Below the pieces are notes generated by a model. That model was not told where the DNA came from. It made no database searches and was given only the letters and a program-made list of their open reading frames with translations. Below, one piece after another: positions 7,940 to 39,955 of a DNA stretch of 64,000 bases. How positions within the stretch are numbered: position 1 is the first letter of the stretch; the number at the start of each line of letters is the position of its first letter. This DNA comes from a virus (Duplodnaviria; Caudoviricetes). Where the stretch lies: positions 1-64,000 of IMG/VR virus record IMGVR_UViG_2840619991_000006. One strand, given 5' to 3'. The translations under genes and the position numbers were made by a program.

Positions 7940-8488
7940 ATGGCGATGCTGTGGAAGATGATTGACTTATCTGACGAAGAGCGTGAGGTTTTGGACCACA
8001 TAAAATTCAACTTTGATGACCTTGACGGCTTCGATGATGTCCAGCGGAACGGCGAGGCTGTCCTTAAACTCATTGGCATGCTCGTGGAGCGAGAGGCGAT
8101 CCCTGAACATCGGGTCCGCTACTTCGTTGATCCCGATTACAATATTGGCGGGCGCGGCAGATCCAAAAAACAGGGCTTTGAACGGAACGGATGTACTGGA
8201 AATGACATATATACACACGTCCATTTTTTGAAATACCTTAAATATTTCATTTATGGTGCTGACCTTCCGCCTGCTATTATTGATAAGTTTTCGGACAAAG
8301 TTGCAAGTTGTGGAAGGGTATCTTCCGGGGACGTTGTGCCGCTGGGCGCTTTCGCAAGACAATTGGCACGCAGCAGTCGTCTTGAATTCTCTGCCGCATC
8401 CGAAGAGTTTTATAAACTTGCCTTGGACTGCGGTTTAAGTCAATCCTATGCAAGCTCAATCCGCAATTCTGTTAAGCAGGGCCGCTGA
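7940..8488 (+). CDS. low-GC hypothetical protein
   Basis: Long ORF in an abruptly AT-richer segment. Confidence 0.55.
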   Translation: MAMLWKMIDLSDEEREVLDHIKFNFDDLDGFDDVQRNGEAVLKLIGMLVEREAIPEHRVRYFVDPDYNIGGRGRSKKQGFERNGCTGNDIYTHVHFLKYLKYFIYGADLPPAIIDKFSDKVASCGRVSSGDVVPLGAFARQLARSSRLEFSAASEEFYKLALDCGLSQSYASSIRNSVKQGR

Positions 8489-8548
8489 TTGAGCTACGCT
8501 TCTATAACAATTATATGCTGGGTGTTAATCGGTATCGCTTGATAATTA

Positions 8549-9301
8549 TCAAATATTATTGTCTCCAAGGCTATCCATCAGAAACGACGCAATCTCCGCT
8601 CCCTCCTGCCATCTCGGCAGATAATGGTCTGTATTAGGAAAGATCACCAGTTTCGAAGGACAACCGCATTGACTTAGCCTCTCGTGCAAATCAACGGCTG
8701 TCTTTACACTCGCGCGGTCATCCATATCGCCGTGCAGGATGAGGGACGGCGTTTTGATTTTCTCGACGTGATACAGCGCTGAGCGTTCTATCCCGGCCTC
8801 TTCAGTCCCGCCGGATTCTTCAACGAATGCAGTGTGAATGCCCTTTATGAGAAAGGTGCTTTCATCAACCAAGTCATAGGAGCCTGCCGACAGAACAAGC
8901 GCCCGCAGGGACGGCTCGGCGGTGGCCACCATGGCCGAAACGACCGCTCCACGACTCCAGCCGCACAATGCGATCCGGCTGGAGTCCACGCCCGGCATAG
9001 TGCGAAGGTGCGCCAGCCCTGCCCGAACTGCTGCCTGAGACCGCGGCCCGCAGAAATCCAGTTGACCGTCGGTATCTCCATAGCCGGGCATTGACACAGC
9101 CGCCGCGACATAGCCCATGGCGAGAACCGAACGAAAGATGCCGGCACGGACCATCACTTCGGCGCCTGGGCGGGGTTCATCCTGATGACCATGCATGAGC
9201 ATGACGGCCGGCCGGCACCCGTCACCGGGCGGACTCTCGACGATGAGTTCCACCTTGGAGCCGCCCAGGTCGGTCGGGGTGAGGAAAATCCGTTCGTGCA
9301 T
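8549..9301 (-). CDS. alpha/beta hydrolase (S9 peptidase/esterase-like)
   Basis: GWSRG nucleophile elbow, HG..DD, DH catalytic triad. Confidence 0.85.
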   Translation of the reverse strand: MHERIFLTPTDLGGSKVELIVESPPGDGCRPAVMLMHGHQDEPRPGAEVMVRAGIFRSVLAMGYVAAAVSMPGYGDTDGQLDFCGPRSQAAVRAGLAHLRTMPGVDSSRIALCGWSRGAVVSAMVATAEPSLRALVLSAGSYDLVDESTFLIKGIHTAFVEESGGTEEAGIERSALYHVEKIKTPSLILHGDMDDRASVKTAVDLHERLSQCGCPSKLVIFPNTDHYLPRWQEGAEIASFLMDSLGDNNI

Positions 9302-12568: not shown

Positions 12569-15500
12569 ATGTCCGTCTCCGCCCAGGTGCGCGCTCCGCA
12601 GCTTGCCGACCTCACTGCCCAGATCGGCGCCGGTACGAAAATCTCCCCGCAATTCCTGATCGGCATCGCCAATCAGCACTTTGGCGGCACCATGACCGCA
12701 GGCACCTACACGACGGCAGACGCCTACGATCTCGCGGAACAGGCGCTCAACAGGCTGATCCTGGAACGCCGGGTCATGCTGGCGCCCACGGTCGGGCTGG
12801 TGTCCGCCCAGGTCAGGGTCGGCGACCTGGAGGCCATGGGCGCGTTGCTGCCGACGCGCACTCGGAGGGATGATGAGGTCGAGGCCTTCGACCAGTTCAG
12901 CACGCCGCCGGCCCTGGGCTTCGCTGCGGCGTGGCTGGCGGACCTGAAGCCCGGAGACGTGGTGCTGGAGCCGAGCGCCGGTGTCGGTGGCCTCGCTGTC
13001 CACGCCCGAAACGCCGGCGCATCGGTGGTCTGCAACGAACTGTCCGAGCGCCGCGCCGGACTGCTGGAGGGGCTGGGGTTCACCCCCATCTTCCGTGAGA
13101 ATGCCGACCACCTCCATTCCGTCTTGCCGAAGCAGGTGCTGCCCACGGCGGTGCTGATCAACCCGCCGTTCAGCGCCACTGCGGGCCGGCTGGGCGACAA
13201 GGCGGACCCGATGACCGCCGCCCGCCACGTCGACCAAGCGCTGAAGCGGCTGCTGGTGAACGGGCGGCTGGTGGCGATCCTGCCGCCGGGCATGGCCTTT
13301 GGCGCCGCCCGGTTCCGGGACTGGTGGCGGCAGATCATCCAGGTCTACTCGGTCAAGGCAAACGTGCTGCTGGACGCCCGCGCTTTCCGGAAGGCCGGGA
13401 CCGACATCGCGGTGCGCGTCGCGGTGATCGACAAGACCGGGCCGACGTCCGCAACGAACCGCCCCATCGTGGCGGAGCTGGACTCCATCACCAGCATGAT
13501 GGCGGTACTGGAAAGCGTCCGGCTGAATCGGCCGCACGTCGCTCCCGCCGCTGCTCCGAAGATGCCGGCTGCGGTCGCCCGCCCCGCAGCACCGACACCG
13601 GCACCCGCGCGCCCCGCCAATGAAGCGGCCAAGCCCAGCGCACCGGTCACCGATCTTCAACCAGCGCCGGCCCCGGCCATCGCCGTCGAGCAGGCCAAGA
13701 CGCGCGACCGCCACGAAACCCCGATCACCGACACCAAATACGAGCCCTATGAACCGCAGCGCCTGAAGGTGCCCGGTGCGCGGCCGCACCCATCCAAGCT
13801 GGTCGAGAGCGCCGCGATGGCCGCCGTGCTGCCACCAGAGCCGCGCTACAGCCCGCACTTTCCGGAGAGCGTCATCCTGGAGGGGCGGCTGTCGCTCGCC
13901 CAGCTCGAAGCCGTGATCTATGCCGGTCAGGCGCACGGCGAGTTCCTCCCCGCTTCGCCCGGCGAAACGCCCTGCCGCGCCGGTTACGCGATCGGGGACG
14001 GAACAGGCGTCGGCAAAGGGCGCGCGCAACCCCTTGATGCAATTGTGCTTACGCCTGCCGGCTGGAAGCAGATGGGAGACATTAAGTTTGGTGACCCCGT
14101 CATTGCCGGCGATGGAAGCCACACCATAGTCACCGGCGTTTATCCGCAAGGCGAATGCGACATCTACCGTATACAGTTCTCGGACGGCGCATCTACTGAA
14201 TGCACCGCCGACCACCTATGGCTCACACAGACGCGCCGCCAACGGTACTACGAAAAGAAAAAGTGGGGCATCAACTATGCAATCCCCAAAGTCCTCACCA
14301 CTGCAGAGATCCAATCGTCTCTGCATCTGATTCACTCCATACCGCTTGTTGGCCCTGTGGTATTCCCGTACCGAGAACTCTTGATCGATGCCTACGTGTT
14401 GGGTGCACTTCTGGCAGACGGTTCTCTTCGGAATTCTGCATCCCAAATCGTCAATGCCGACGAAGAGGTGTTGACGAATGTCGCCACGGCCTTGCCGGAT
14501 GGTATGATGCTGAAGAAAGTAGCGGCGCGCGAATACCACTATGACATTAAGAGCACAACCCCATACGGGAAAGGCTGTTCTCTACCAATAAATCACGTAC
14601 AGCGGGCGCTTCGCGCCTATGGTCTAACTAACAAAACTGCCGCATTTAAATTCATTCCAGATGACTACAAATTTAACAACGCTGCAACTAGGCTTGCAAT
14701 ATTGCAAGGACTAATGGACTGTGACGGCTATGTTAACAAGCACGGAGCCTGCGTCTATTACACGGTGTCGGAGCGTCTTGCATCCGATATTGAATTCATC
14801 GTTCAGTCGCTCGGCGGCACCACGACTCGCGGCTTGAAACCGACTAACCGGCTTCTTTGCCACGTAGTGTATTTACGCCTTCCAGAAGGAATAAACCCGT
14901 GCCGATTGACCCGGAAGGCCAACTTGGTACGCAAAGCTTGGGTAAAGTACCCGCCAAGACGGTACATCAAGAGCATTGAGCTCATTGGCAGGAAGCCAGC
15001 TCAGTGCATTGCTGTGGCGCACCCATCTCGGCTATACGTCACCAACAATTTTATCGTTACTCACAACACGTCCGCAGCAACAATCCTGGACAACTGGCAC
15101 CAGGGCCGCCGAAAGGCGCTCTGGATCACCAAAAACGATTCCACCCTGCTCGGCGCCGCGCGCCGCGACTGGTCCGACCTCGGCGGCGATCCCTCGGTCA
15201 TCTTCCCGCTTTCCAAGACGCCCGCGGGTGAAGCCATCAAGGCGCCGCACGGCATTCTCCTGGTCAGCACCGGCACCCTGCGCAGCAAGCCACGGGAGAA
15301 GATCACCCGTCTCCAGCAGATCCTCAACTGGCTGGGCCCGGACTTTGACGGCGTCATCATCTCCGACGAGCACCACGCCGCCGCGAACGCCGTGGAGACG
15401 GATGGTTCCCGCGGCAAGACGAAGGCCAGCCAGACCGGGTTGGCATCGGTGGATCTCCAGAAGTCCCTCCCGCTGGCGCGGATCGTCTACGTCTCGGCAA

Positions 15501-17951: not shown

Positions 17952-19571
17952 TCAGACACCCACGCTGAGGTCCGTTCGCATGTCAGCATACAGCACAGCC
18001 CTCCCGCGACCGGCTTTTTTCGCCGTGTAAAGTGCTTGGTCGGCATACCGACAGACCATGCCCAAATCGGAGCTGTTCACCGGCCACAGTGCGACACCGA
18101 CGCTGCACCCGATATGGACAACTTCTCCTTCGATCAGAAACGGCGCGCTTAGGCTGTTGATGATCCTGCTGGCGACGTCGAGTGCGTGCTGTGGGAGCGG
18201 GCCGCTCGGTAGCCGCATCACAACGGCGAATTCGTCGCCGCCAAGGCGGGCCGCCAAGTCACCGTGGCGCGTGCACTGAGCCAAACGAGCTCCAACTTCG
18301 ACAAGGACCGCGTCGCCGAGATGGTGTCCGTACGCATCATTGACTGGCTTGAAGCCATCGAGATCGAGGTAGAGGATAGCGACTGCGGCGGTGCTCTGAA
18401 CCGCTTCGCCTTTCAGGCGCTCCAAATGACCATCAAAAGAACGCCGGTTCGCCAACCCGGTGAGCCGGTCCTGGAAGGCATAGGTGCTCAAGGTCAGGCC
18501 CATGTCACGGACCGCGCGCGCGACCTCGCCAATTTCGGCAATGTGCGGCTTGTCAGGGGCATAAGGATGGTGCGACGTGAACTGACCCGACGACAGGCGC
18601 GCCGCCGACGCCTGGAGAGCGCGCAATCCACGGAGCACCGACACTTCCATCAGGAACCAGACACCGATCACCAGGACGAGCACCACACCGACCATGACGC
18701 CGGTGCTGACCAGCAGTTTCCGGTCAACCTCGGCAACCGCGGCCTCTCTGGCGATGCCCACGGCGATGCGCGCTCCGGTATCGCCCAACGGGGCGTATCC
18801 GATGATCCGCGTCGCGCCATCCAATCCTACCCCTTCGACCACCCCGGTCGTGTTCCGCAGGATTTCTTGGATGACCGGTTGCTCGGCCACGGATTGTCCG
18901 ACCATCCCGGTTGGATCGGGCTCGCGGGCAAGCACCGTGCCTTGGGCGTCCAAGAGCGTAACGGCTCCGCCTGTCGTCTTCGCCGCTTCGGCCGACAGGC
19001 CAGCCAACCACTTGAGGTCCACACCGGCCAGAAGAACGCGGTCAACCTTACCGACATCGTCGAGGGTCGGCAGCACGGCGACCAGAACCGGTTTGCCGCT
19101 GGCCCGGCCGATCAGATAAGCGCTGAGGGTGAACCGCTTGGTCACCAGCGCCCGTTGAAAATACTCGCGGTCAGCAATGCTCAGTGAGCGGTTGTCGCTG
19201 TCGCACAACAGACGACCATCGGGCTGGACGACGGAAAAGCCCGTGCTCCACGGGTGAAGGGTGGTGACTTGCTGTAGAAGCGATACGCATTCGTCCGGTA
19301 CCGCCATTCTCACTTCGGGCACGAGAGTGAGCATCTGGAGCGCGCCACGCGCCTGCTGCAAAACCTCGGCTTGCTGGGCGGCGCCGCGTTCGGCAAGGAG
19401 AATGGTGCTGTGCCGTGCGCGTTCGATCTCCTGACCACGCTCCTGCAAAACGAGAAGGATGATAAGTCCGGCCAGCGGCAACAGAGCGAGCACGATGAAG
19501 GTCTCAAGACGCGCATGAAGCCCCACTTTTGACCACAGCGACCATGCGCGTTTAGATAGACTGCGGACCAT
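17952..19571 (-). CDS. membrane sensor diguanylate cyclase (dCache-HAMP-GGDEF)
   Basis: Two TM helices, Cache motif DREYF, D.LTGL.NRR, DLDGFK, RHGD I-site, intact GGDEF. Confidence 0.92.
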   Translation of the reverse strand: MVRSLSKRAWSLWSKVGLHARLETFIVLALLPLAGLIILLVLQERGQEIERARHSTILLAERGAAQQAEVLQQARGALQMLTLVPEVRMAVPDECVSLLQQVTTLHPWSTGFSVVQPDGRLLCDSDNRSLSIADREYFQRALVTKRFTLSAYLIGRASGKPVLVAVLPTLDDVGKVDRVLLAGVDLKWLAGLSAEAAKTTGGAVTLLDAQGTVLAREPDPTGMVGQSVAEQPVIQEILRNTTGVVEGVGLDGATRIIGYAPLGDTGARIAVGIAREAAVAEVDRKLLVSTGVMVGVVLVLVIGVWFLMEVSVLRGLRALQASAARLSSGQFTSHHPYAPDKPHIAEIGEVARAVRDMGLTLSTYAFQDRLTGLANRRSFDGHLERLKGEAVQSTAAVAILYLDLDGFKPVNDAYGHHLGDAVLVEVGARLAQCTRHGDLAARLGGDEFAVVMRLPSGPLPQHALDVASRIINSLSAPFLIEGEVVHIGCSVGVALWPVNSSDLGMVCRYADQALYTAKKAGRGRAVLYADMRTDLSVGV

Positions 19572-19831
19572 CGTACCAGCCGTTATGAATGCGCGAGTAT
19601 GCCTATTCTTGATGTGTATGGTTTTTCAAGATTCAATTTGCAACAAAGTTGGTGGCTTGGCTCGCTATTTGCGATGCAAACAACCGTGCGCCTTGGGGGT
19701 AGCCAAAGAATTATCAGAGTATTGTCATATAATATCTGAAGCTGAAAAGCCGAATTCCTCTCAGAACATGGTGACGGGATTTATCAACGCGGCACCATAT
19801 TGACGAGGACAATGAGATCCCAGGCAAGGGA

Positions 19832-20437
19832 TCAGCCATTGACCACTTCCCGAGCTGGCAGCACATCAATGTTCGCCCTGAAGACGGTGAACGTCAGCGC
19901 CACGATCTTTGGGTTATCCTCCCAGCGCTCGCCCGGCTTGTCGTGCAAGCTGTTCCAGAGGCAGTAGAAGGCGCCGCGGGCCTCGCTTCCGGCAAGAATC
20001 GGGTTCCGGCCGAACCACCAACCGTTTGCGCACGGCTCGGCGCCCTCCGCCCGCGCGTCTTCCTCCGTGATGTCCTGGAGCCGCTGAAACCGGACGTCCT
20101 CCACAACGAGCGTGATTCGGCTGGCCCAGCGCGGCATATGGATGGAAGGGCGCCACGGATAGCCGCGGAACTCCCGGTCGGCTTTCGCCAGCGTGTCGGT
20201 CGCGGCGTACCGGACATCGCACGGCTGGTACCGTGTCACCTCGTAGTCGCCCCAGGACAGAAGTTGGAAGTTCTCCCGCACCCACAGCCGGTCGCCCGGC
20301 TGCACCTTGGCGAGCGGCGACGTGGCGAGGCGGCGCGTCTGCTTCTTCAGATCGGCCAGTTCAGCGCGCACCATGGCTTCGCTGAAGATGATCGGAATGT
20401 CCTTCGGCGGGCGCGGCGTCACGGAGTCAAGCGGCAT
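19832..20437 (-). CDS. phage ASCH-like protein
   Basis: PIIFS..MVRA..K.QTRR, GDRLWVRE, PSIHMPRWASRITL; paralog at 50963. Confidence 0.7.
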   Translation of the reverse strand: MPLDSVTPRPPKDIPIIFSEAMVRAELADLKKQTRRLATSPLAKVQPGDRLWVRENFQLLSWGDYEVTRYQPCDVRYAATDTLAKADREFRGYPWRPSIHMPRWASRITLVVEDVRFQRLQDITEEDARAEGAEPCANGWWFGRNPILAGSEARGAFYCLWNSLHDKPGERWEDNPKIVALTFTVFRANIDVLPAREVVNG

Positions 20438-22281: not shown

Positions 22282-23486
22282 GCGGCCTCCACAGCGCCAA
22301 GGATTTCGTCCACCAGGGCCTTCGGCGCCGTACAGCCGGGCTTCCCGGGCTGAGGCCCCCATCGGTCATCCCAGGTGCGGGAGTCCCGATAGCGGGTGAG
22401 CCGCTGGCGCCAACGGGCGACCTCTGCGTCCGCCGCAACCGCAGGGCCAACGGAGGCGCCCTGCCGGGGCCGGGAATCAGGCGGTGGACCAGCCTGCACC
22501 TTGCGGAACTTCGCGATCTCAGTGTCCAAGCTGAGGTTGAAGGCGCTCAGGCTTTTCGGCGGCGGCTTCCCGTACTGCCGGGCGTCTTCAGCGGCGCCAG
22601 CCATGCCGCGCTCGATGGTTTCCAGGAGGAGCGCGACGGGCGCGCCCTTGGCCACGTACTGGACGGCCTGGGTTTCGAGGGTCATCCGGTTGGCGGGAAG
22701 ACGGCTGTCACCAGGGAAATGTTTCTCCCGGCTCGCCAGAAATCCATCCACCACCGCCACCACCTCTGGCGAGACGGTCCTTGCGGGTTTGGCGGCGGGG
22801 GTAGGGGGTGGTTGTTTTCCGTTTAAGTTTCCATTTCTATTTGTCTCCGTTGCGGACCCCTGACGGACTCCGTTTCCAACCGCAACGGACTCCGTGACGG
22901 ACGCAGATGAATTCCGTTGGTCATCCGTTACGGATGCCTGACGGATTCCGTTACCACCCTGCCCCTCATCCGTGACGATATCCGTCACGGCACCGTTTCG
23001 GTCGGAAGTGGCTTCCTTAACGCCGTCCGTCTGCGTTCCGTTCGCCTCCGCAGTTTTCGCCTCGCGCTTGGTCCGTCGGGCTTCCGCTGCGGCTTCCGTT
23101 GCGGACTTCGTCTGCGTCTTGGTTTTGCGGGACTTCTCCCACACCTCGATCACTACCTCGGCGACAACCGGGTGGTACCAGCGTCCATCGTTGCAGAGAA
23201 TCCAACCTGTGCCGGACATGATGTCGGCCTTGATAGCCTCCCATTCATCCGGGGGGCACATCGCGGCGTCAGCAAGAAGGTCATCATCATCCGGCAGGCT
23301 GCCGGCTTGCTCATGGCTCGTGAACGCCTCGGTCCACATATTCATGAGGTAGAAGCCGTGCGCAGGCCGCCGCTTACAGCGCACCCAGGTCCGCGACTTG
23401 CGGAGCCGGGTGACATAGAGCGGCATGTAGTCGTATCCGGACAGGTCGATACCAGCGGGAACGAGGGGTTCGGGAAGTTCGTTCAT
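22278..23486 (-). CDS. phage replication initiator (DUF1376-like)
   Basis: YMPLYV.RL..S, AGSLPDDD, DGRWYHPVV; adjacent to dnaB; internal DNA repeats. Confidence 0.7.
   Translation of the reverse strand: MNELPEPLVPAGIDLSGYDYMPLYVTRLRKSRTWVRCKRRPAHGFYLMNMWTEAFTSHEQAGSLPDDDDLLADAAMCPPDEWEAIKADIMSGTGWILCNDGRWYHPVVAEVVIEVWEKSRKTKTQTKSATEAAAEARRTKREAKTAEANGTQTDGVKEATSDRNGAVTDIVTDEGQGGNGIRQASVTDDQRNSSASVTESVAVGNGVRQGSATETNRNGNLNGKQPPPTPAAKPARTVSPEVVAVVDGFLASREKHFPGDSRLPANRMTLETQAVQYVAKGAPVALLLETIERGMAGAAEDARQYGKPPPKSLSAFNLSLDTEIAKFRKVQAGPPPDSRPRQGASVGPAVAADAEVARWRQRLTRYRDSRTWDDRWGPQPGKPGCTAPKALVDEILGAVEAA
22811..23105. repeat. putative phage origin: TCCGTNRCGGA-type repeats plus AT-rich tract inside the initiator gene
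   Basis: Copies at 22846, 22891, 22924, 22969, 22981 and 23095; T-rich tract 22811-22844. Confidence 0.6.
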
Positions 23487-31108: not shown

Positions 31109-32272
31109 TTACTCCGCCGGGGCCATGAAAGCGTCGGCGGCGCCATTGCTGGCCATCGCCGGCATCAGCACGTCCGCGTCATCGTCTTCCGGCAGGTCCG
31201 GCAGTTCGTCGCCGTCGTCCGCATCGGCGAAAACCACCTCCCCGCTCTCTCCCGGCGCCTCGGCGGCGGCCGGACCGGCTTCGTCGAACAGGGCGTTGTC
31301 CTGCCCCTCCCAGCCGGCCAGCCACGCATCGGCCTTGGCGCTGCCGGCGGGATGCGGGCAGGCGGACTGCGGCTCGCCGGCTTCGCAGGCGGTGGCCCCT
31401 TCCGCCTCCAGCGCCTGGACTTCCTCGGCGCTCAGGGCCTGCTCGGACGGTTGACCACCGCCCTCGCCGGCTTGCTCCGCGGCGCGCTCGGCGGCACGGG
31501 CCGCGTTCTGGGCGTCCTGTTCGGTCGCCCAGCCCTTCATGACGATGCCGGCCTTCACCGGATCGTCGCCGTAGGCGTGCGCGCCCGGCGCCTTGCCTTC
31601 GCGGAACAGCTTGATGCCCTCCGCGAGGAGAGCCGTGTGCTCGTCCTGCGACATGCCCTCGGGAAGTTCGGAGCCGGCCACCGCGCCGGCGCCGGATGCC
31701 GGCTGACCACCCTCCGCCGCCGCCTTGATTGCGGCGTCCATGGCGTCCCACGCCTGTTCGAAGATCGCGACGGACTCCACTCCGGTAAGCAGGCAGTCGG
31801 AGCGCTTCTCGCCGTTGCGGCGGGCTTCGCAGCCCTTGGCCCAGGCGCCGAGCTTGCGCTTCTTGCCCTCGAAATCAGCCGGCGGGTTGGGGTTCGGAAT
31901 GGCGGAGAGGTCCGGCCCGATGACCGCTTCCATCGCGCCCGCGACAGCTTCGGCGTCCGGCATCTCATCGAACAGCGCTTGCTGCCGGGCCACGTTGAGC
32001 TGAAGCGCCGGGATCAGGTGAAGAAGCTGCTGCGCCTCGATGGTCGCTTCGGGATCGTCGTTCCGCTTCCTCGCAAACAGCCGCGCCAGCGCCTTGAACA
32101 CGGGCTTGCGAACACCGGTCTTCGCAGCGTCGCGAATCACCTCCGCCTTCTTGGAATTGGCGGCGGCGGCTTGGGATTCCCGCTCAAGCAGCTGGTCCAT
32201 CGCCCGCTCAAGGTCGGACGGGGAAATGCTCGACGGGTCGATGGCAGGTTTCTCGTTCAGCTTGCGGGCCAT
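31109..32272 (-). CDS. GapR-like N-terminus + three Rmf-like repeats + acidic tail
   Basis: KAEVIRDAAKTGVRKPVFKAL; repeats such as EGATACEAGEPQSACPH...AWLAGW. Confidence 0.5.
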   Translation of the reverse strand: MARKLNEKPAIDPSSISPSDLERAMDQLLERESQAAAANSKKAEVIRDAAKTGVRKPVFKALARLFARKRNDDPEATIEAQQLLHLIPALQLNVARQQALFDEMPDAEAVAGAMEAVIGPDLSAIPNPNPPADFEGKKRKLGAWAKGCEARRNGEKRSDCLLTGVESVAIFEQAWDAMDAAIKAAAEGGQPASGAGAVAGSELPEGMSQDEHTALLAEGIKLFREGKAPGAHAYGDDPVKAGIVMKGWATEQDAQNAARAAERAAEQAGEGGGQPSEQALSAEEVQALEAEGATACEAGEPQSACPHPAGSAKADAWLAGWEGQDNALFDEAGPAAAEAPGESGEVVFADADDGDELPDLPEDDDADVLMPAMASNGAADAFMAPAE

Positions 32273-33319: not shown

Positions 33320-33550
33320 TCAGGCCCCCGCCGCGAGGGTCAGCAGAAACGCAAGCCAGAGAGCGAGGAGACCGGCGAGCAGCGGCAGGATGGGTCCGGC
33401 GCTACCACGCGAGGAGTACCGCCCCACCCCGCATGCGCGCGTGACATGCCTCCCGCCTTCGAGGCACTCTTGACATGGTTCCAAATACTTGAAATCCGTC
33501 TTCAAGTTGTGCGCTGCCAGGATCTTGCTTGTGATGAAGCCCATGGTCAT
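33320..33550 (-). CDS. small protein with C-terminal TM helix
   Basis: CxxC motif and hydrophobic C-terminus. Confidence 0.35.
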   Translation of the reverse strand: MTMGFITSKILAAHNLKTDFKYLEPCQECLEGGRHVTRACGVGRYSSRGSAGPILPLLAGLLALWLAFLLTLAAGA

Positions 33551-33608
33551 GGGTCACCTACTGCAATCAGATCAGCCGCGATACGGCACACCTCTTCTGT
33601 TTCGGTGA

Positions 33609-33884
33609 TCACTCGCCCCCTCCCTCTTGCTCAGGGGCGGACGGCAAAGAAAGCTTGGATGAGACTTCCTGTTCATCCAGGGCTTTGCTTTCCTGGAGCA
33701 GTTCGAAAAAGTCGTTTGGGGTCACCTCTCCTTTGGACGCGCAAAAGATGCGCGTCATCGCCGTCCAGCCCGGCTTGACCAGACCTCGGCGATACCGGCT
33801 GATCGCGGACTTATGGAGTCCTGCTTCTTGACCGAACTGCTCGTCAGTCAGGCCCCGGTTTTTTATGTGAGAAGAGAGATTCAT
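33609..33884 (-). CDS. cro: Cro-like HTH regulator
   Basis: GLTDEQFG..AGLHKSAISRY..G..KP...GEVTPNDFF; divergent from the repressor. Confidence 0.75.
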   Translation of the reverse strand: MNLSSHIKNRGLTDEQFGQEAGLHKSAISRYRRGLVKPGWTAMTRIFCASKGEVTPNDFFELLQESKALDEQEVSSKLSLPSAPEQEGGGE

Positions 33885-33893
33885 GTCCGTCAC

Positions 33894-33970
33894 GTTGCCA
33901 TCATTGCAACATGAGTTCAAGCCCGAAGTTGCCAAAGCTTCAACTGACGCGAAGTTGCAGCCATGGCAAC
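33894..33970. promoter_or_regulatory. three 17-bp operators (OR-like)
   Basis: GTTGCCATCATTGCAAC 33894-33910, GTTGCCAAAGCTTCAAC 33928-33944, GTTGCAGCCATGGCAAC 33954-33970. Confidence 0.85.
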
Positions 33971-33978
33971 TTGTTGCA

Positions 33979-34356
33979 ATGAGTGACGAACAGCAAATAG
34001 CAGGCGCACGTCTCAAGGCGCTGCGCGAGGCCAAGGGATGGTCTCAAGAAAAGCTCGCCCAGGAAAGTGGGTTGGGCGACAAGACCCTTATGAGCAAAAT
34101 GGAACGTGGGCTAATTCGCCTCAACGATATAAAGCTGAGGCGTCTATCACAGGCTCTTGGATGTACCCCTGGAGATCTTCTCGCAGACGAGTCATACGAA
34201 CCAGCGCCACCGCATAAGGATGAAGACGAGGCTCTTTTCAACGAAGCTCGTCAGGTAATGTCAGACACTGAGTTAGATGACGTTCGCAGATACCTTCGAA
34301 TGCGAATTGAAATTGCCCGCGCACGACAATCATCACCGCCATCAAGAAAGTCCTGA
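33979..34356 (+). CDS. cI: CI-like XRE repressor lacking an S24 peptidase domain
   Basis: RLKALREAKGWSQEKLA...SKMERG; 125 aa with a short helical C-terminus. Confidence 0.8.
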   Translation: MSDEQQIAGARLKALREAKGWSQEKLAQESGLGDKTLMSKMERGLIRLNDIKLRRLSQALGCTPGDLLADESYEPAPPHKDEDEALFNEARQVMSDTELDDVRRYLRMRIEIARARQSSPPSRKS

Positions 34357-34466
34357 ATATAATCAAGCACCAAGATTCGATCTTCACCCGATAGCGCTCG
34401 AAACATATCTAGCATTTCATCTTGATTTGCGCAGGCGATCTCCTCGTTCTTAAGCTCGCTCACCAT
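34251..34466 (-). CDS. small ORF resembling an XRE C-terminal helix pair, overlapping cI antisense
   Basis: AAGGAG RBS just upstream of the ATG; EMLDMFRALSGEDRILVLDYI. Confidence 0.55.
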   Translation of the reverse strand: MVSELKNEEIACANQDEMLDMFRALSGEDRILVLDYIQDFLDGGDDCRARAISIRIRRYLRTSSNSVSDIT

Positions 34467-34614
34467 GCGGTCTCCTTATGACGCGGTCCCCGTGCGTGTC
34501 ATGGTTGGCCACCCTCAGGATAAAATGGCGAACGTGGGGATCATAACCAAGTAGAGGGACACAAACGCTTCTCAGGCAGTCGCCCCAGCCGCCGAAGCGA
34601 CCGGGGCGCGGCGA

Positions 34615-35064
34615 TCAGGCTGCCAGCGGCTGGATGACCAACCAGCAACCGTCATTCGCTGCAAGCAGACCTTCTGCGATGGCTTCTTCGTAGGACGGAA
34701 GGTGGCGGCCAGCGTTGGCAAAGGCCGAGCGGGTGTTCTCCCACGCCTCCACGGCCTCTGGGCCGCTGGTGGCTGGGAACGGGTCGTGGACGATCACATT
34801 GCCAGCGCCGTAGAGTTCGGCACCGATCTTCAGCGCGCTGCGGGTGTCGAGGAGCACGGTGTGCAGCGCCACGTCAGCTAGATTCGGGACCGCGTACCTG
34901 CGGCCATGCTCATGGGCTTGGGCGTCGCCCAAGATAACCTTGACCTGTTGGAACGCCTCGTCGCGCTCCGCCTCGGTGTGGCCGAAGCGGCTCACCATCG
35001 CATGCTCATAACGGCTGAAATCAATCTCTGTGACGTTCGCGTAACCCATTCTGTCGATCCTCAT
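34615..35064 (-). CDS. GRDP/DUF1399-like protein (degenerate P..D..H..LDT motif)
   Basis: AVPNLADVALHTVLLDTR...IVHDP; likely start 35049 with GAGGA RBS; hairpin at 34578-34614 downstream. Confidence 0.45.
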   Translation of the reverse strand: MRIDRMGYANVTEIDFSRYEHAMVSRFGHTEAERDEAFQQVKVILGDAQAHEHGRRYAVPNLADVALHTVLLDTRSALKIGAELYGAGNVIVHDPFPATSGPEAVEAWENTRSAFANAGRHLPSYEEAIAEGLLAANDGCWLVIQPLAA

Positions 35065-36286
35065 GATTTGCGCGTGATTGCGCGGGACATCGCTGCGATT
35101 TTTCCTACCAGCTTAGAAATTGCCGAGAGATCGTCAGCAGCGAAATCTTTCTGGCGCAGGCGGGCTTTCATCCCATCCTTCCCGTTGATTTGGTTGTAGA
35201 CGGTCCGTGGCGAGCTTCCCCGGATCTCACCGATGACCTCCGGAGACAAGCCGGCCCCAATCAGCGCAGCAACGTGGGCCTGCGCATCCGGCAAACCGAA
35301 AGCGGTCCGCAGGCTTGCAGCGACCGATTCAACGTCATCACCAAATCGGGCAACGACAAGGATCACCGTTCGCTCAAGCTCACCAGGAGCTATGGCCATC
35401 AGCAAGGGTTCGCCGCGAAGGCGTCGCAGGAAGACCGTTTGCGGCGCCCGGCTCCTTGCGACCGCGGCGATCGCCATCCGTAGTTCCTGCTCACCTTCGC
35501 TCATGATGGCTGTGACGTGTCCGGTCTCGTCCAGGCACACCCCGTCCCCCCGATCAGCGCATCACCGAAGCTGGAGTTGCCGTGGATCAGGACGCCGTCA
35601 TCGCGGCACAATGCGACAGCGAGGTCCAACGCATCGAGAGCTGAGCTGAGCCCGACCAACGCGCGGCGGAGCTTCGCAATCTCGAACAGATCCTCGCGAG
35701 TATCGACCGGTGGAAGGTATTGCTCGACAGCCAGGGATGGCAGGCCGACGCGGACCTGGACGCACGTTCCATCCGAGAGGCATAGATTCGATACCGCCAT
35801 GCGGCCGTGCTGGTAATCGCCGACCCACTGCAAACGCTCTCTTGCCCGCCGCTCTATCGTCTTACGCGCAAGATACGATACCGGGTCCCGATTGATTTCA
35901 GCGCTGGCCATCGCACCAGAATTCAGCACGCTCCAGAAAAGTGACGCATAAGTTTCCTTCAGATAATCTGAACATGGAAACATCCGAACCTGCGCTGTAT
36001 TCGCCCATGCTACTGCATCCTCTGGGGAATATACGAGAACAGCACCGCCAAATTCCTCAGCAGTGCTTATCATCACTGTCGCGGATGGCGGGAGACCGAT
36101 GGGGAACGCGTCTGGCATGTCGTAACAATCATGCTGACTGGAGGCACAAAAGGAACGGTACGGCAGAGCATCGATATCGGCATGGTCAATTTTACACATG
36201 CCAGAGGGGTCAGAGCTTTTTCTGTAAAGATTGGATCGCCCGATGCACATACTGGAATATGATAAGGCCGCCGAACGCAGATGCAT
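35061..36286 (-). CDS. PAS-PAS-LuxR HTH regulator split by a frameshift in a C6 run (35546-35551)
   Basis: N part is PAS_7-like; C part has LRTAFGLPDAQAHVAALIGAGLSPEVIG.IRG.S.RTV LuxR HTH; one extra G restores ...LIGGDGVCLD... Confidence 0.7.
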
Positions 36287-36328
36287 TCGACGGCCTACAG
36301 CGAATTAAGATTAGAAATATCGACTATA

Positions 36329-37273
36329 TCAAGCAGTAGCGGTTTCCCGGTGCGAAGCCCTTCCCTTCGCTGCTGAACCTGACTTCTCTGCAAAAGAGAG
36401 ATAGGTCGCGCTTGCAACGATCAATGCTGCACCAATCAGGTCTGCGCCGGTCATTTCCTTCCCGAACACTAACCATCCAACGATGGCTGTTGCCGGAAGG
36501 GTAAGATAATCAAAGCAAGACACGTAAGGCAGTGGTGCAGCAGCCAGCGCCTTCGCCGTTGCGATCTGCGATCCTGCGGCAAGAATTCCGACTGCAATCA
36601 GTCCAGCCAGGACCCAGCCCCCGATTTCGAACGGCACCCAAGCTCCGTAAGCAAGCGGCGCCATGCCGAGCGCCGAGGCGGCCATAAATACAAGAACGAT
36701 CAGGTGGGCTGGATTTGTCGACGTGAGCCGGCGTACGGCTGCCAGCGACACGGCGGAGAGCATAGCCCCTGCCAAGGCAGCGATGATGCCCAGGTCGAGC
36801 CCAACAGACAACGCCGGATAAACCGTTACGATGACGCCGATCAGCCCAGCCACCACGGCGGACCAGACCCGCCAAGACGCCCTCTCACCCAACAGCATCA
36901 TAGCGGCGCCCTGCATAAACAGGACTCGGCTCATCACGATCAGGTTGATAAGCGCAAGGTGTTGTCCGCTGGTCCAGGCGTAGAGGATGCAATAGCCCGC
37001 CAGCAGCCCGGTTCCGCACCGGATCGAAAACCACATCAGATTATTGATCTGACGCAGCTCAGCCAGGATGCTTCGACCGGAGAAAATGATGCCCACCGCA
37101 AGGGCGCCAAGCGCTCCGACCGAGCGGAAGAAGCCCAGTTGCTCAGCGGTAAGCCCATGGCTTGAAAGATACTTGGCGACCGCTCCACCAAAGGTGAACA
37201 GGAAGGCGGAATAGATCGCCCAAGCTGCTGCGTTTGGACGTTTAAAAAATGAAGGAAGCATGCTGCGCCTCAA
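36329..37273 (-). CDS. DMT/EamA family transporter
   Basis: About 10 TM helices, QLGFFR, LLGER, GWLVFG.E. Confidence 0.88.
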   Translation of the reverse strand: MRRSMLPSFFKRPNAAAWAIYSAFLFTFGGAVAKYLSSHGLTAEQLGFFRSVGALGALAVGIIFSGRSILAELRQINNLMWFSIRCGTGLLAGYCILYAWTSGQHLALINLIVMSRVLFMQGAAMMLLGERASWRVWSAVVAGLIGVIVTVYPALSVGLDLGIIAALAGAMLSAVSLAAVRRLTSTNPAHLIVLVFMAASALGMAPLAYGAWVPFEIGGWVLAGLIAVGILAAGSQIATAKALAAAPLPYVSCFDYLTLPATAIVGWLVFGKEMTGADLIGAALIVASATYLSFAEKSGSAAKGRASHRETATA

Positions 37274-37294
37274 ATGATTTTGTCTAGGCGAACA

Positions 37295-38005
37295 CTAAAG
37301 ATGATCGAGAATTTTTCTCCTCCTATCTTCGTATTCTTCTTTTGTTATAACCTTTCGTTCAAACATATCTTTCAGAGTTGATAAACGTGTTGCAGTGTTG
37401 GTAGGCGCGCTGGTCGTAGGCTTCGTTTGCGGATTTGGCTTTGGTGATTGCAGCTCTCCCACACGCGGGTCGTAGATTGAGTTTATGAACGGCACCAAAA
37501 CACTATTATCGCCTGGCCTCGCCATCGCCTGAAACAACTGAAGGCATTTATTTTCCATGTACATTTTTCCTAAGACATTGAATTTTCCGAACGCACTATC
37601 GGAGCGGCCACCATATTCAAGAATTTTTCGATTATTATCTGCATAGAAGTTATGACTTGTCATTACCCACTCGTCACCCCTATTAGATTGTTTCATAATC
37701 TCTAAAGCGATACTCTCTGTTGCCTTACCTAAGTCAAAGTTGTTTCCACAGAAGCAAGCTATCGCTCTTTGCTCATCAGCCGAAACTTGCTTAACCGCAT
37801 ATGCATTAATGCCTGAACTTGATACGCGGCCAGGGTCATTGATAATGTCTACAGGCCCATTTATCTGCGCACGCATCCGGCAATCTGCGGGAAACTTCTC
37901 CATTGCTTCAGATGCATCGATGTGCGACTTAGTAGTTTGACATGCCCCCAAGAGCACCAAAACCATAGAAGCCGCAAGCCGCGTGATTAGGATTAATTTT
38001 CTCAT
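37295..38005 (-). CDS. lipoprotein with C-terminal SHOCT domain
   Basis: Signal peptide + LGAC lipobox; RLSTLKDMFERKVITKEEYEDRRRKIL; low GC. Confidence 0.75.
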   Translation of the reverse strand: MRKLILITRLAASMVLVLLGACQTTKSHIDASEAMEKFPADCRMRAQINGPVDIINDPGRVSSSGINAYAVKQVSADEQRAIACFCGNNFDLGKATESIALEIMKQSNRGDEWVMTSHNFYADNNRKILEYGGRSDSAFGKFNVLGKMYMENKCLQLFQAMARPGDNSVLVPFINSIYDPRVGELQSPKPNPQTKPTTSAPTNTATRLSTLKDMFERKVITKEEYEDRRRKILDHL

Positions 38006-38778
38006 TACAAATCCTCCAAAATTTTCCGACGCCTATCTTCATATTCTTTTTGAGAAACCAGATTGCGTTCTCGAAGATCCTTCAGCGTGGCTAAGCGCGC
38101 CTCAACTGAACTCCCCATTGTTACCAATGGCGCGCCTGCTGATTGCGGCCTCGAAACGGATAAGGCGGTAAGTTTTGGGTCGTCCAAGGCTTGGTCAATG
38201 GCGGCTTGCATACTATCGTTTATGATTTTCCTCAAGCCATCGACTTGCGAAACAAAGCTACCATCTTCCACACGATTATCCTCATAGACCTGAGAATACA
38301 ATTGCTGCCCTGTTGATTTATCGATTGCTTTTACATTAAACCTTGTATGCCCCTCACGGCGCATGAGTTGGTTTGAGTCCAATCGTTCAATGCTTACAAC
38401 AAGACCAATATACGCAACGTCAGTTTTTGCCAGCAATCCACGAGATTTTAATCCCTCGATGAATGCTTGTCGCACCATGTCATTTACCGGAGTTTTCGTT
38501 TCAAGTATCCAAAACGGGTTTCCATATCCCCCGCGAACAGTCCCAATTTTATTGGATGGATTCTTTCGAGCGTCGGTTACCGTTGATATTTCGACCATTG
38601 GAATAGCGCCGGTGGCGGCAATGGTTTGAGCAGCGGGCCGATACGTCAGGTCAGTCGGCGTCGTCCCGCATCCTGGTAAGCAAATAGCTACCGCACTTAA
38701 TACAAGCGCGCCGATTCCACTTTGCACTGAGAGCCCGCTTCGCACCGGCCTTCCATTCGACGAAAGTAGATGCCTCAT
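38005..38778 (-). CDS. YajG-like lipoprotein with C-terminal SHOCT domain
   Basis: LPGC lipobox, VTDAR..IG.VRGGYG, RLATLKDLRERNLVSQKEYEDRRRKIL; start uncertain. Confidence 0.7.
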   Translation of the reverse strand: MRHLLSSNGRPVRSGLSVQSGIGALVLSAVAICLPGCGTTPTDLTYRPAAQTIAATGAIPMVEISTVTDARKNPSNKIGTVRGGYGNPFWILETKTPVNDMVRQAFIEGLKSRGLLAKTDVAYIGLVVSIERLDSNQLMRREGHTRFNVKAIDKSTGQQLYSQVYEDNRVEDGSFVSQVDGLRKIINDSMQAAIDQALDDPKLTALSVSRPQSAGAPLVTMGSSVEARLATLKDLRERNLVSQKEYEDRRRKILEDL

Positions 38779-38919
38779 CTTAAACAGCAAGAAGGGCCTA
38801 AGCCGCTGATGGCCGGCATCTCCAAAAACGGGCATTCTTCCTCCAGCGCATACAATAATATGCATTCATGATATCCAACACCACCATGGCGACTGTGACA
38901 CACACCCGCCGAGGCATCA

Positions 38920-38971
38920 GTTGCCAATTTTGCAACTTTCCACTTGACGCGCTGGTTGCCATCATGGCAAC
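38920..38971. promoter_or_regulatory. two 17-bp operators (OL-like) around a TTGACG -35 box
   Basis: GTTGCCAATTTTGCAAC 38920-38936, GTTGCCATCATGGCAAC 38955-38971, TTGACG at 38944. Confidence 0.85.
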
Positions 38972-39140
38972 GTCCGTTATGTACCCCGCACGGTAGCGGT
39001 TCACACCACCACCCAAGGGGTACGCGCTTCCACGCTCCTTCGAGCGTTGGGCGTTTCCTCCTCAGACTGTGCCCGCCGGTCGAGCCGGTCGGCGGGCACC
39101 TTCTCAGGGCGGAGCGCAGAATCCGGAAGAGGACACCGCC

Positions 39141-39335
39141 ATGGGCCAGCCTGCCCGCCGCACTGCTGACGTTGACCAAGAGTTTCTTACCGCCTGCCGC
39201 TCGGTCGTTGCGCCGGTGCTGGAGCGAGCGGCACAGGACATGGGCGTGGTGGACGAGGCCCGGCATCTCTGGGCGATCAGTTCGCCGATCCCGCCCAGCC
39301 AGAAGGGCAGGGCGGGGCATCCCGCAACGACCTGA
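39141..39335 (+). CDS. hypothetical early protein
   Basis: GAGGA RBS. Confidence 0.45.
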   Translation: MGQPARRTADVDQEFLTACRSVVAPVLERAAQDMGVVDEARHLWAISSPIPPSQKGRAGHPATT

Positions 39336-39454
39336 CCGCTCCCCTCCCCTTCCCGATCCCCAGCCCCTTACCCGCGTCGATCCCGCGGGTGGGGCATGAG
39401 GCGTTGAAGACGGCCCCATCCGGCCCGGCCAACCACCAACATCAAGGATCACCG

Positions 39455-39868
39455 ATGCTCGACGTTTCCATCACCGAGGTTTTCGGCGGCTGCGCCTGCG
39501 AGGGATGCCGCCAGACCCGCTCGATCAAGCTGGAGGGCGTCGCCATCGACGCCGCGCGTCGGCTCGACGCCAACCATGACGCCATCGCCCAGCAGATCAA
39601 GGCGCTCTTCGATCAGGTGAAGGACCTGATCGGGCAGGGCAAGGCGGACGCCGATGTGCTGTGGGAGATCATCAAGCACGAAACCGGCACCGAGGGCATG
39701 AAGGGGCTGCGGCTCGACACCGATTACCTGACGGACCACGGCATCGCCTTCCTGCATGTGCCGATCACCGACGCCAGCGCCGACACCACCGAACAGGACG
39801 CCGAACCCGCCTCGCAAGACGTGGGCGCCGTCGAGACCGCCGAGACGCCCGCCGCGGCGGCGGACTGA
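39455..39868 (+). CDS. acidic hypothetical protein
   Basis: AAGGA RBS, CxCxxC motif. Confidence 0.6.
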   Translation: MLDVSITEVFGGCACEGCRQTRSIKLEGVAIDAARRLDANHDAIAQQIKALFDQVKDLIGQGKADADVLWEIIKHETGTEGMKGLRLDTDYLTDHGIAFLHVPITDASADTTEQDAEPASQDVGAVETAETPAAAAD

Positions 39869-39955
39869 CCTCCCCTCCCCGCCTGCCGCCGGGGTGCGCT
39901 GAACCTGCAAGCACCCCGGCGCACTTCCTCCACGCACTGAACGCCAGAGGGACCC

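Follow-up and report, generated by a model that had tools for sequence, protein, structure and literature searches.

A conserved, undescribed trio of genes, encoding an EamA-family transporter, a LuxR-type regulator with tandem PAS domains and a small GRDP-like protein (here called p144), resides in the immunity region of a temperate phage whose host is the soil bacterium Azospirillum, and this trio is the main product of the analysis reported here. The DNA examined, in the following called the window, is a stretch of 64,000 nucleotides that comprises the first 64 kb of a provirus record in IMG/VR (IMGVR_UViG_2840619991_000006; 116,159 bases, 95% complete by its rating). Comparison with related phages indicates that the trio lies in an exchangeable immunity (imm) segment (33347-39870) of a lambda-like prophage; the best explanation of the arrangement, which we consider moderately probable, is that this segment combines a switch core with mosaic accessory cargo, the latter consisting of a host-type sensor/exporter trio and two lipoproteins.

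In the window the three genes follow each other on the minus strand in the order EamA (36329-37273; 314 aa), regulator (35061-36118) and p144 (34615-35064; 144-149 aa). The transporter, of the EamA/DMT family, is recognized by the Pfam family EamA in two stretches (E 2.5e-11; 44.4 bits, with a cut-off of 28.2), and the start of the p144 gene overlaps the stop codon of the regulator gene (ATGA). Homologs of the regulator (E ≤1e-10) are encoded in 26 of 130 Azospirillaceae genomes, with up to four matches per genome. Gene order was compared for the best 20 of 40 regulator matches in Azospirillaceae, a set which, extended by L037 and L040-L042, amounts to 24 distinct loci. A p144-family gene is located directly downstream of the regulator gene, on the same strand, in each of the 20 best loci and in 23 of the 24 distinct ones; the exception, L037, carries two tandem regulators. 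The 12 regulator/p144 pairs for which genes were called overlap by 4-17 nt or are separated by a gap of at most 12 nt. Upstream of the regulator gene lies EamA in the window, and EamA or other genes elsewhere; an EamA homolog (24-40% identity) is present within 1.5 kb of the regulator in 14 of the 20 loci, divergent in six and co-directional, as in the window, in eight. Together, these comparisons argue that EamA, regulator and p144 constitute one conserved unit.

The limits of this unit can be drawn from two relatives. Azospirillum tabaci shares with the window exactly the stretch from the start codon of the regulator gene to the p144 stop codon (36118-34619; 79.7% nt identity) and nothing beyond. 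Contigs of up to 23.5 kb from one soil-metagenome study represent a third sibling phage, in which the backbone is 97% identical (38981-39500, homology resuming at 38981), EamA is 86% identical, and the regulator, p144 and about 100 nt upstream are 88% identical, all in the order found in the window; there, however, 1648 nt of other sequence replace 33559-34615 (cro, cI and orf71), and 2520 nt of other sequence replace 37274-38981 (both lipoprotein genes). The soil sibling keeps the trio and replaces both others; the three genes thus travel together, without being tied to the lipoproteins or to the immunity core. The GC content accords with this, forming a mosaic of 44-48% in the genes of the two lipoproteins, which bear SHOCT tails, 58-63% in the EamA/regulator/p144 unit, 44-56% in cI, cro and orf71, and 68% in the backbone. 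The initial annotation had regarded the entire cassette as a single signal-sensing system; that view stands for EamA, regulator and GRDP-like protein, but not for the lipoproteins and the cro/cI/orf71 core, each of which was replaced independently of the trio in the soil sibling.

The regulator is split in the window into two frames (35501-36118 and 35061-35540). The cause is one base missing at about 35547-35551, beside a run of six G, relative to A. tabaci as well as to the soil contigs, whose regulator frame is intact and has one extra base at this site; neither half contains further stops. Intact homologs of 337 aa are encoded by Azospirillum aestuarii (85% identical) and A. tabaci (84% identical). 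The regulator of the window itself matches no Pfam family, even at E 10, and no NCBIfam family; its relatives are more informative. A full HMMER search returned at least 150 representatives at E 1e-3 or better, and among 60 aligned relatives GerE was detected in 31, PAS_4 in 19 and PAS_8 in 17. The family profile matches structures of LuxR-type helix-turn-helix (HTH) domains (NarL, VraR, GerE and FixJ) with E values down to 1.4e-9, and the AlphaFold2 (AF2) model, for which the predicted local distance difference test (pLDDT) is 92.6, matches tandem-PAS structures (DosP, FixL, HIF-2a/ARNT and PpsR) over 260-300 columns with E 5e-9 to 1e-5. The protein is thus predicted to carry a C-terminal GerE-type HTH with PAS folds N-terminal to this output domain, and its initial assignment as a PAS-PAS-LuxR regulator was borne out by the relatives' domains, the family profile and the model alike. 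The closest homologs of the regulator form two clusters only, and a scan of viral contigs with it found none.

The third member of the unit is the most divergent. Scanned directly, p144 matches neither Pfam nor NCBIfam. By hhalign, the p144 family (alignment A4) is related to a sister group (A5) with 97.4% probability and E 1.1e-11 over 143 columns, and all six members of the sister group match PF07173 (best E 1.6e-6); by this profile relationship p144 can be regarded as GRDP-like, as first proposed, despite the lack of a direct Pfam match. Close homologs are restricted to three clusters among 5.8 billion proteins. In an alignment of the family (A2) the residues D59, H63, H88 and C135 are invariant, and D89 and P90 nearly so; the core motifs are AD-x-AL-H and H-D-P. 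Members adjacent to a regulator gene possess a cysteine directly before a hydrophobic residue, 10-20 aa from the C-terminus, in 20 of 20 cases, and end in Ala-Ala in 16 of 20. In one member (L032; equivalent to L048 10582-11262) this tail unit is expanded to six diverged GAGCF units, and in another (L031, 2792-3084) the tail contains a 45-bp tandem repeat in 6.5 copies, 95% matching. Since the tail unit is repeated in these two family members, we argue from the sequences that the Cys unit is more than a metal ligand, namely a substrate or product; p144 itself might be a small metal-dependent enzyme or a self-processing precursor. The AF2 model of p144 (pLDDT 92.9) places the tail as a strand, whose likely partner is the strand element (84-89) next to the H-D-P motif. 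Among solved structures the fold search gave a best Foldseek E of 0.54 and a best VIA-align Z of 3.7, which does not prove a new fold; in the ESM Atlas the nearest clusters are termed "UCP032817-like" (score 0.92), which may serve as a lead only. Titles and abstracts retrieved with "DUF1399" or "PF07173" concern plants, fungi and surveys and mention no bacterial member. Outside the Azospirillaceae the p144 family is rare: it was found in 12 of 401 sampled Alphaproteobacteria and in 3 of 401 sampled Pseudomonadota, A. tabaci being one of these three; distant members do not adjoin a regulator gene.

Most loci of the module are chromosomal or integrase-adjacent. The initial annotation had anticipated a phage-specific module and had named occurrence of the genes in non-phage contexts as what would speak against it; the synteny search uncovered just this, a trio that is mostly chromosomal or island-borne. 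A scan of 112 neighboring proteins, encoded 2-6.5 kb from the module at 16 loci, matched 114 families, and among the 25 of them that are listed Phage_integrase (six) and DDE transposase (three) are the commonest; ParB_N, SRAP and DnaB are present twice each, the remaining ones are largely housekeeping (e.g., hydrogenase maturation and MlaE), and no phage structural family is found among these 25. Beside the module, four loci encode integrases 63-86% identical to that of A. tabaci, and a fifth locus encodes a more distant integrase.

Some further features of these loci may be mentioned here. The closest regulator/p144 pair, that of A. tabaci, is part of an island at a tRNA-Asp gene (L002 4652-9704), which also encodes a tyrosine integrase, an XRE-family protein and a 668-aa DUF3560-methyltransferase protein; related integrases adjoin the module in three other genomes. 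A. tabaci has, in addition, a chromosomal copy of the trio (G001:C14:104034-106722; L012/L074) in the co-directional order of the window, EamA, regulator and GRDP-like protein, and a third regulator/p144 pair, reversed, on contig 15. In several chromosomal copies of the module the p144 gene is followed by a gene for a short GerE-type regulator (about 212 aa; GerE E 2.4e-16), as in L038 (8309-8947), L040 (8337-8978), L043 (8361-8996) and L047 (11043-11681), and often by a further gene of about 147 aa; the window has neither.

That the trio resides in a swapped segment follows from comparison with a prophage on plasmid p7 of Azospirillum argentinense (NZ_CP032328.1; L079). By tblastx, this sibling is 90-98% identical in amino acid sequence up to about position 33346 of the window and again from about 39871; between these points there are weak matches at 39060-39275 only. 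Because the sibling is nearly identical on both sides and wholly different across 33.35-39.87 kb, this stretch represents an exchangeable immunity segment with variable cargo, which agrees with the earlier placement of the cassette inside the immunity region. Its GC content is 44-63%, versus 68% in the flanks; GC is about 67% for the window overall and 47-59% over 34-39 kb. The corresponding segment of the p7 sibling (L079 3220-9860) encodes an unrelated, P22_Cro-like Cro, a cI of 178 aa that possesses an HTH only, without S24 domain, and, in the position of orf71, an unrelated open reading frame (ORF) of 75 aa that likewise converges on cI and overlaps its end. Its cargo, at 57% GC versus 67-68% in the flanks, comprises a Crp/Fnr regulator (cNMP_binding and HTH_Crp_2), three genes without assigned function and, on the OL side, a weakly lipoprotein-like gene (LptM_cons, E 5e-4). 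A DNA search with the 6-kb region of the window gave no match in the phage collection and a backbone match only in the plasmid collection.

The core of the segment has a divergent early-operon layout that is lambda-like. The cI-like XRE repressor gene (33979-34356, plus strand; 125 aa) matches the Pfam families HTH_31 and HTH_3 at about 1e-10 and no other family; Pfam detected no Peptidase_S24 domain in the 125-aa frame or in the longer one of 157 aa, so that the earlier statement that this repressor lacks an autocleavage domain proved correct, and the NCBIfam matches, which are DicA/RstR-like, are under cut-off. With cI as query, viral contigs gave only HTH matches of 38%, and metagenomes gave only distant HTH matches, of at most about 60% identity over short stretches; scans of viral contigs with the cII-like protein and of metagenomes with protein P0004 gave none. 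The cro-like HTH gene (33609-33884, minus strand; HTH_3 E 3.4e-4) opens the leftward early operon, the next genes being cII-like (phrog_101) and RuvC-like (phrog_159). Between cro and cI lies an OR-like cluster (33894-33970) of three dyads of the type GTTGC-N7-GCAAC, at 33894, 33928 (with one mismatch) and 33954, and an OL-like pair of the same dyad (38920-38936 and 38955-38971) precedes the rightward early/recombination operon, which begins near 39141, on the plus strand, and extends to SbcC-like genes. Allowing one mismatch, the dyad is found at six sites in 64 kb versus 2.76 expected, five of them within the two clusters; the four exact copies in the full 116-kb record are all in these clusters. 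The sixth site (23190-23206; GTTGCAGAGAATCCAAC), which has one mismatch, is remote from the immunity region and compatible with chance. Scans for promoter and terminator consensus sequences gave counts at the level of chance (4 versus 3.3 expected and 7 versus 6.9 expected), and an alphaproteobacterial consensus for SOS boxes gave 1 site versus 1.92 expected.

Between cI and the second operator cluster there are six genes, every one on the minus strand; the cassette of the initial annotation is thus present with all its named members, their coordinates having been refined. Nearest to cI is orf71 (34251-34466; 71 aa), which is preceded by AAGGAG 5 nt before its ATG and which, converging on cI, overlaps the 3′ end of the latter by 106 nt. 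It has a single homolog, P0155, also of 71 aa and 72% identical; the C-terminal 28 aa, mostly the part that overlaps cI, are near-identical, and the N-terminal part is diverged with the frame kept. No homolog was found in the phage collection, the 130 Azospirillaceae genomes gave only chance-level matches inside long ORFs, and scores in the ESM Atlas did not exceed 0.82. Because the stretch overlapping cI is near-identical in P0155 and the remainder diverged with the frame kept, orf71 is probably a part of the cI/immunity core rather than cargo. Directly after the p144 stop codon lies a GC-rich hairpin of about 12 bp with a UUCG loop (34582-34607, minus strand), which lacks a U tract and is a possible terminator; its minimum free energy is −31.8 kcal/mol, but relative to shuffled sequences this corresponds to a weak z of −1.45.

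At the other end of the cassette are the genes of the two lipoproteins. Lipoprotein 2 (38005-38778; 48% GC) is YajG-like, with a lipobox LPGC, a match to Lipoprotein_16 (34.2 bits) and a SHOCT tail under cut-off (E 4.7e-4; 20.2 bits); its ORF could start at 38865, the signal peptide beginning at 38778. Lipoprotein 1 (37295-38005; 44% GC) has a lipobox LLGAC and a SHOCT tail (28.4 bits; cut-off 27). The lipoprotein 2 stop overlaps the lipoprotein 1 start by 1 nt, and a gap of 21 nt separates the latter gene from EamA. The two proteins resemble each other in the tail only (41% identity over 58 aa; E 9e-14). Among the 130 Azospirillaceae genomes, 13 encode homologs of lipoprotein 2 (40-48% identity); most of these lack the SHOCT tail, none adjoins lipoprotein 1, and no homolog was found in phages. 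By comparison with the soil sibling the two SHOCT lipoproteins are cargo separate from the three-gene unit. A defence role for them is unsupported; PADLOC gave no match for p144, orf71, EamA or either lipoprotein, and for the regulator a chance-level match of 0.026.

Upstream of the regulator start, at a distance of 61-84 nt, lies the dyad GGCATG-N12-CATGCC (36179-36202, minus strand), which may serve the regulator operon as an operator or promoter element. Neither the window nor the full 116-kb record contains a second copy, even if up to three mismatches are allowed, and the 20-nt core of the dyad is shared with the upstream region of A. tabaci, which is otherwise unalignable. Many regulator genes have an A/T-centered palindrome 60-95 nt upstream, the arms of which are specific to the paralog (e.g., GTGCAAAATTTTGCAC and ATATGGAAATTTCCATAT). 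Apart from these palindromes, 8 of 21 upstream regions (L026-L034) contain, behind the co-directional EamA genes and 230-340 nt ahead of the regulator start, the word CCGAGTCG, often doubled (CGTCCGAGTCGCG).

The explanation favored here may be outlined as follows. The switch core would consist of cro, the three OR operators, the HTH-only cI, the small convergent orf71 and the two OL operators, and the cargo would occupy the slot in which lambda carries rexAB. The regulator would bind a small ligand by means of its PAS domains and control its own operon (regulator and p144), probably via the A/T-centered dyad about 60-85 nt upstream, as well as the adjoining exporter; p144, with its Asp/His set and its Cys tail docked on the domain, might make, modify or be the precursor of a compound exported by EamA. 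In a lysogen such genes would be cargo for lysogenic conversion, supplementing or disturbing a signalling or efflux circuit of the host, the regulator of the present copy being inactivated by the 1-nt deletion unless this is an assembly error. Gene identities, segment boundaries, conserved synteny and modular exchange are what the comparisons yielded; ligand sensing, autoregulation, the role of p144 and export are steps that we infer from them.

A number of observations weigh against this explanation. The break in the regulator may reflect either a mistake of assembly or a genuine loss of function. The dyad at 36179-36202 is not significant taken alone, as a repeat with 6-bp arms is estimated not to exceed chance; of 21 upstream regions, only six stand out in a test for even palindromes (matched by no more than 11 of 300 shuffles), five of them with the palindrome at −63 to −84 and one off this position, at −150, so that the idea of an upstream dyad is weak. 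All three related phages have a sensor transcription factor in the cargo slot (the regulator in two, Crp/Fnr in one), and such recurrence is more readily explained by a functional link to the switch than by random cargo. Neither the repressor of this phage nor that of the p7 sibling has an S24 domain; some other route of induction must exist. Finally, of 19 contexts examined for the close type of module, about seven are mobile elements, which renders a role of the module in the life cycle of the carrying element plausible.

A rival explanation is the proposal of the initial annotation, namely that the regulator senses a small molecule, possibly made by p144 and moved by EamA, and then turns on an antirepressor, orf71, or antisense transcription into cI, inducing a prophage with a repressor not open to cleavage through RecA. 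Phage induction modules of this general kind are established; as outlined for them, a transcription factor activates a divergently transcribed small ORF, the product of which inactivates cI (10.1101/2022.09.16.508337). The HTH-only nature of cI in this phage and in the p7 sibling, the strong Shine-Dalgarno sequence of orf71, its 106-nt overlap with cI, its 72% conservation in one other sequence, the ligand-sensing regulator in the same slot of three out of three related phages and the frequent presence of the module on mobile elements are all consistent with such a model. The regulator and orf71, however, are not divergent neighbors; they point the same way, with orf71 about 600 nt downstream of the regulator, beyond p144 and the hairpin, which speaks against the suggested analogy with VqmA and Qtip. 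Because similarity to both relatives breaks off at the stop codon of p144 (34615/34619), the promoter region of orf71, i.e., the 148 nt before it, was not inherited with the regulator; the sole candidate site, unique in 116 kb, precedes the regulator's own gene, so that the claim that the regulator targets orf71 was not upheld. Moreover, the soil sibling has kept the trio next to an entirely different cro/cI/orf71 core, 23 of 24 regulator/p144 pairs lie outside phage immunity regions, and the copy of the regulator in this provirus, rated 95% complete, carries a frameshift. Sequence comparison, the dyad scan of 116 kb and synteny yielded no tie of the regulator to cI, cro or orf71. We therefore regard the proposal as unlikely, and a role of the module in the lysis-lysogeny decision or in induction as possible but unsupported, with a correspondingly small chance of being real; what may keep the thought of a sensory input to induction alive is that in two phages the repressor has an HTH only, a small ORF converges on cI and the slot holds a ligand-sensing transcription factor. 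Quite unlikely, in our estimate, is also a broader scheme in which EamA, regulator and p144 form a self-contained chemical signalling system: the p144 tail would give rise to a signal, EamA would export it and the PAS-LuxR protein would mediate autoinduction, the mobile copies using the circuit to time induction or excision, or to eavesdrop. In such a system p144 may be a metal-dependent, self-processing synthase or precursor whose Cys tail unit yields the signal; the mobile carriers may be this phage lineage and the integrase islands at tRNA genes, and their target the paralogous circuits of the host. If true, this would explain why a sensor is retained in the immunity segment of prophages with non-cleavable repressors.

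Two further accounts have, in our view, little chance of being correct. One sees in the cassette an envelope-directed function, lysogenic conversion or superinfection exclusion, in which the two periplasmic lipoproteins and EamA, in the inner membrane, would change the cell surface or uptake so as to block incoming phages, with the regulator tuning their expression. Prophage lipoproteins that exclude other phages are known (Llp and Cor), three of the six products of the cassette are envelope proteins, GC is lowest in the lipoprotein genes, whose spacing to each other and to EamA is tight (1-nt overlap and 21-nt gap), and the lipoprotein-like gene of the p7 sibling occupies the same OL-proximal position. 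EamA, however, travels with the regulator/p144 pair and not with the lipoproteins, the homologs of lipoprotein 2 in the 13 genomes are ordinary chromosomal YajG-like genes, and neither PADLOC matches nor phage homologs of lipoprotein 2 were obtained. The other account, to which we assign a similarly low probability, considers the cassette decaying, functionless passenger DNA, the regulator being a pseudogene and the cargo on its way to being lost. It would accommodate the base missing relative to two independent relatives and the small number of closest homologs of p144 and regulator (three and two clusters, respectively), but the lesion is a single one, beside a run of six G, without further stops and with all other ORFs intact; it could be an assembly error, and the trio is intact in a sibling phage at 86-88% identity.

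The module may be compared with several known systems. With the VqmA_Phage-Qtip system of VP882, as far as it is outlined in the literature, it shares a phage-borne receptor with PAS and LuxR-type HTH near a repressor gene, and a small orphan ORF nearby. The receptor considered here, however, has two PAS domains and 337-352 aa, whereas VqmA has one PAS domain and about 240 aa; VqmA structures (6ide, 6kju and 6ugl) are matched over the HTH only (profile positions 275-337; E about 3e-4); regulator gene and small ORF are not divergent neighbors; a GRDP-like gene is the obligate partner of the receptor gene, and EamA a usual one; and whereas VP882 is a linear plasmid phage, the present element is a lambda-like prophage in integrated form. 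Lambda carries the accessory genes rexAB between cI and OL/PL, and the cargo described here appears to lie in the equivalent slot, between the repressor gene and OL-type operators, inside a segment that differs among heteroimmune phages which are nearly identical elsewhere; as in lambdoid morons, its GC content is foreign and its content varies between siblings. Unlike rexAB, it is transcribed towards cI, not with cI, and consists of a predicted regulator/exporter module and lipoproteins rather than of an exclusion system.

PAS-LuxR "solo" regulators, such as those of the Photorhabdus PluR/PauR type, are found in proteobacteria. The regulator resembles them in combining a PAS sensing domain with a GerE-type HTH and in occurring as multi-copy paralogs in Azospirillaceae genomes, but differs from them by its coupling to a GRDP-like gene in 23 of 24 loci and to an exporter gene in many. 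p144 shares with the GRDP-like/DUF1399 proteins (PF07173) the core motifs D-x-A-(W/L)-H and H-D-P, but it is below detection by Pfam, does not have the second His of the WHxH motif and possesses a Cys-bearing tail. In luxR-luxI-type circuits an autoinducer is sensed, and ribosomally synthesized and post-translationally modified peptides (RiPPs) may stem from fused enzyme-core or multi-core precursors; by analogy, the receptor gene of the module would be co-transcribed with the gene of a small putative enzyme or precursor, with an exporter adjoining and a Cys tail unit that is repeated in two family members, although p144 has no homology to any known synthase or RiPP enzyme.

Should the favored reading of switch core and accessory cargo be right, the segment would add one more example of cargo in an immunity region, together with a tightly conserved, unstudied trio of the Azospirillaceae. 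With its confident predicted structure and no structural match, p144 would then be a target in the search for a new ligand-receptor pair in a plant-associated genus. Phages with repressors that RecA cannot cleave need another trigger; two of the siblings keep the trio, and the third has a Crp/Fnr sensor in the same slot.

Outside the immunity segment, the window contains other patches of low GC, at 8001-9000 (50%), 14001-15000 (52.5%) and 19001-20000 (57%), which are possibly further cargo insertions. An acidic early protein of 387 aa is encoded at 31109-32272 on the minus strand; its sole PHROG match spans 30 residues, and its counterpart in the sibling record (about 98% amino acid identity) is annotated as "Rmf/CrpP family protein".

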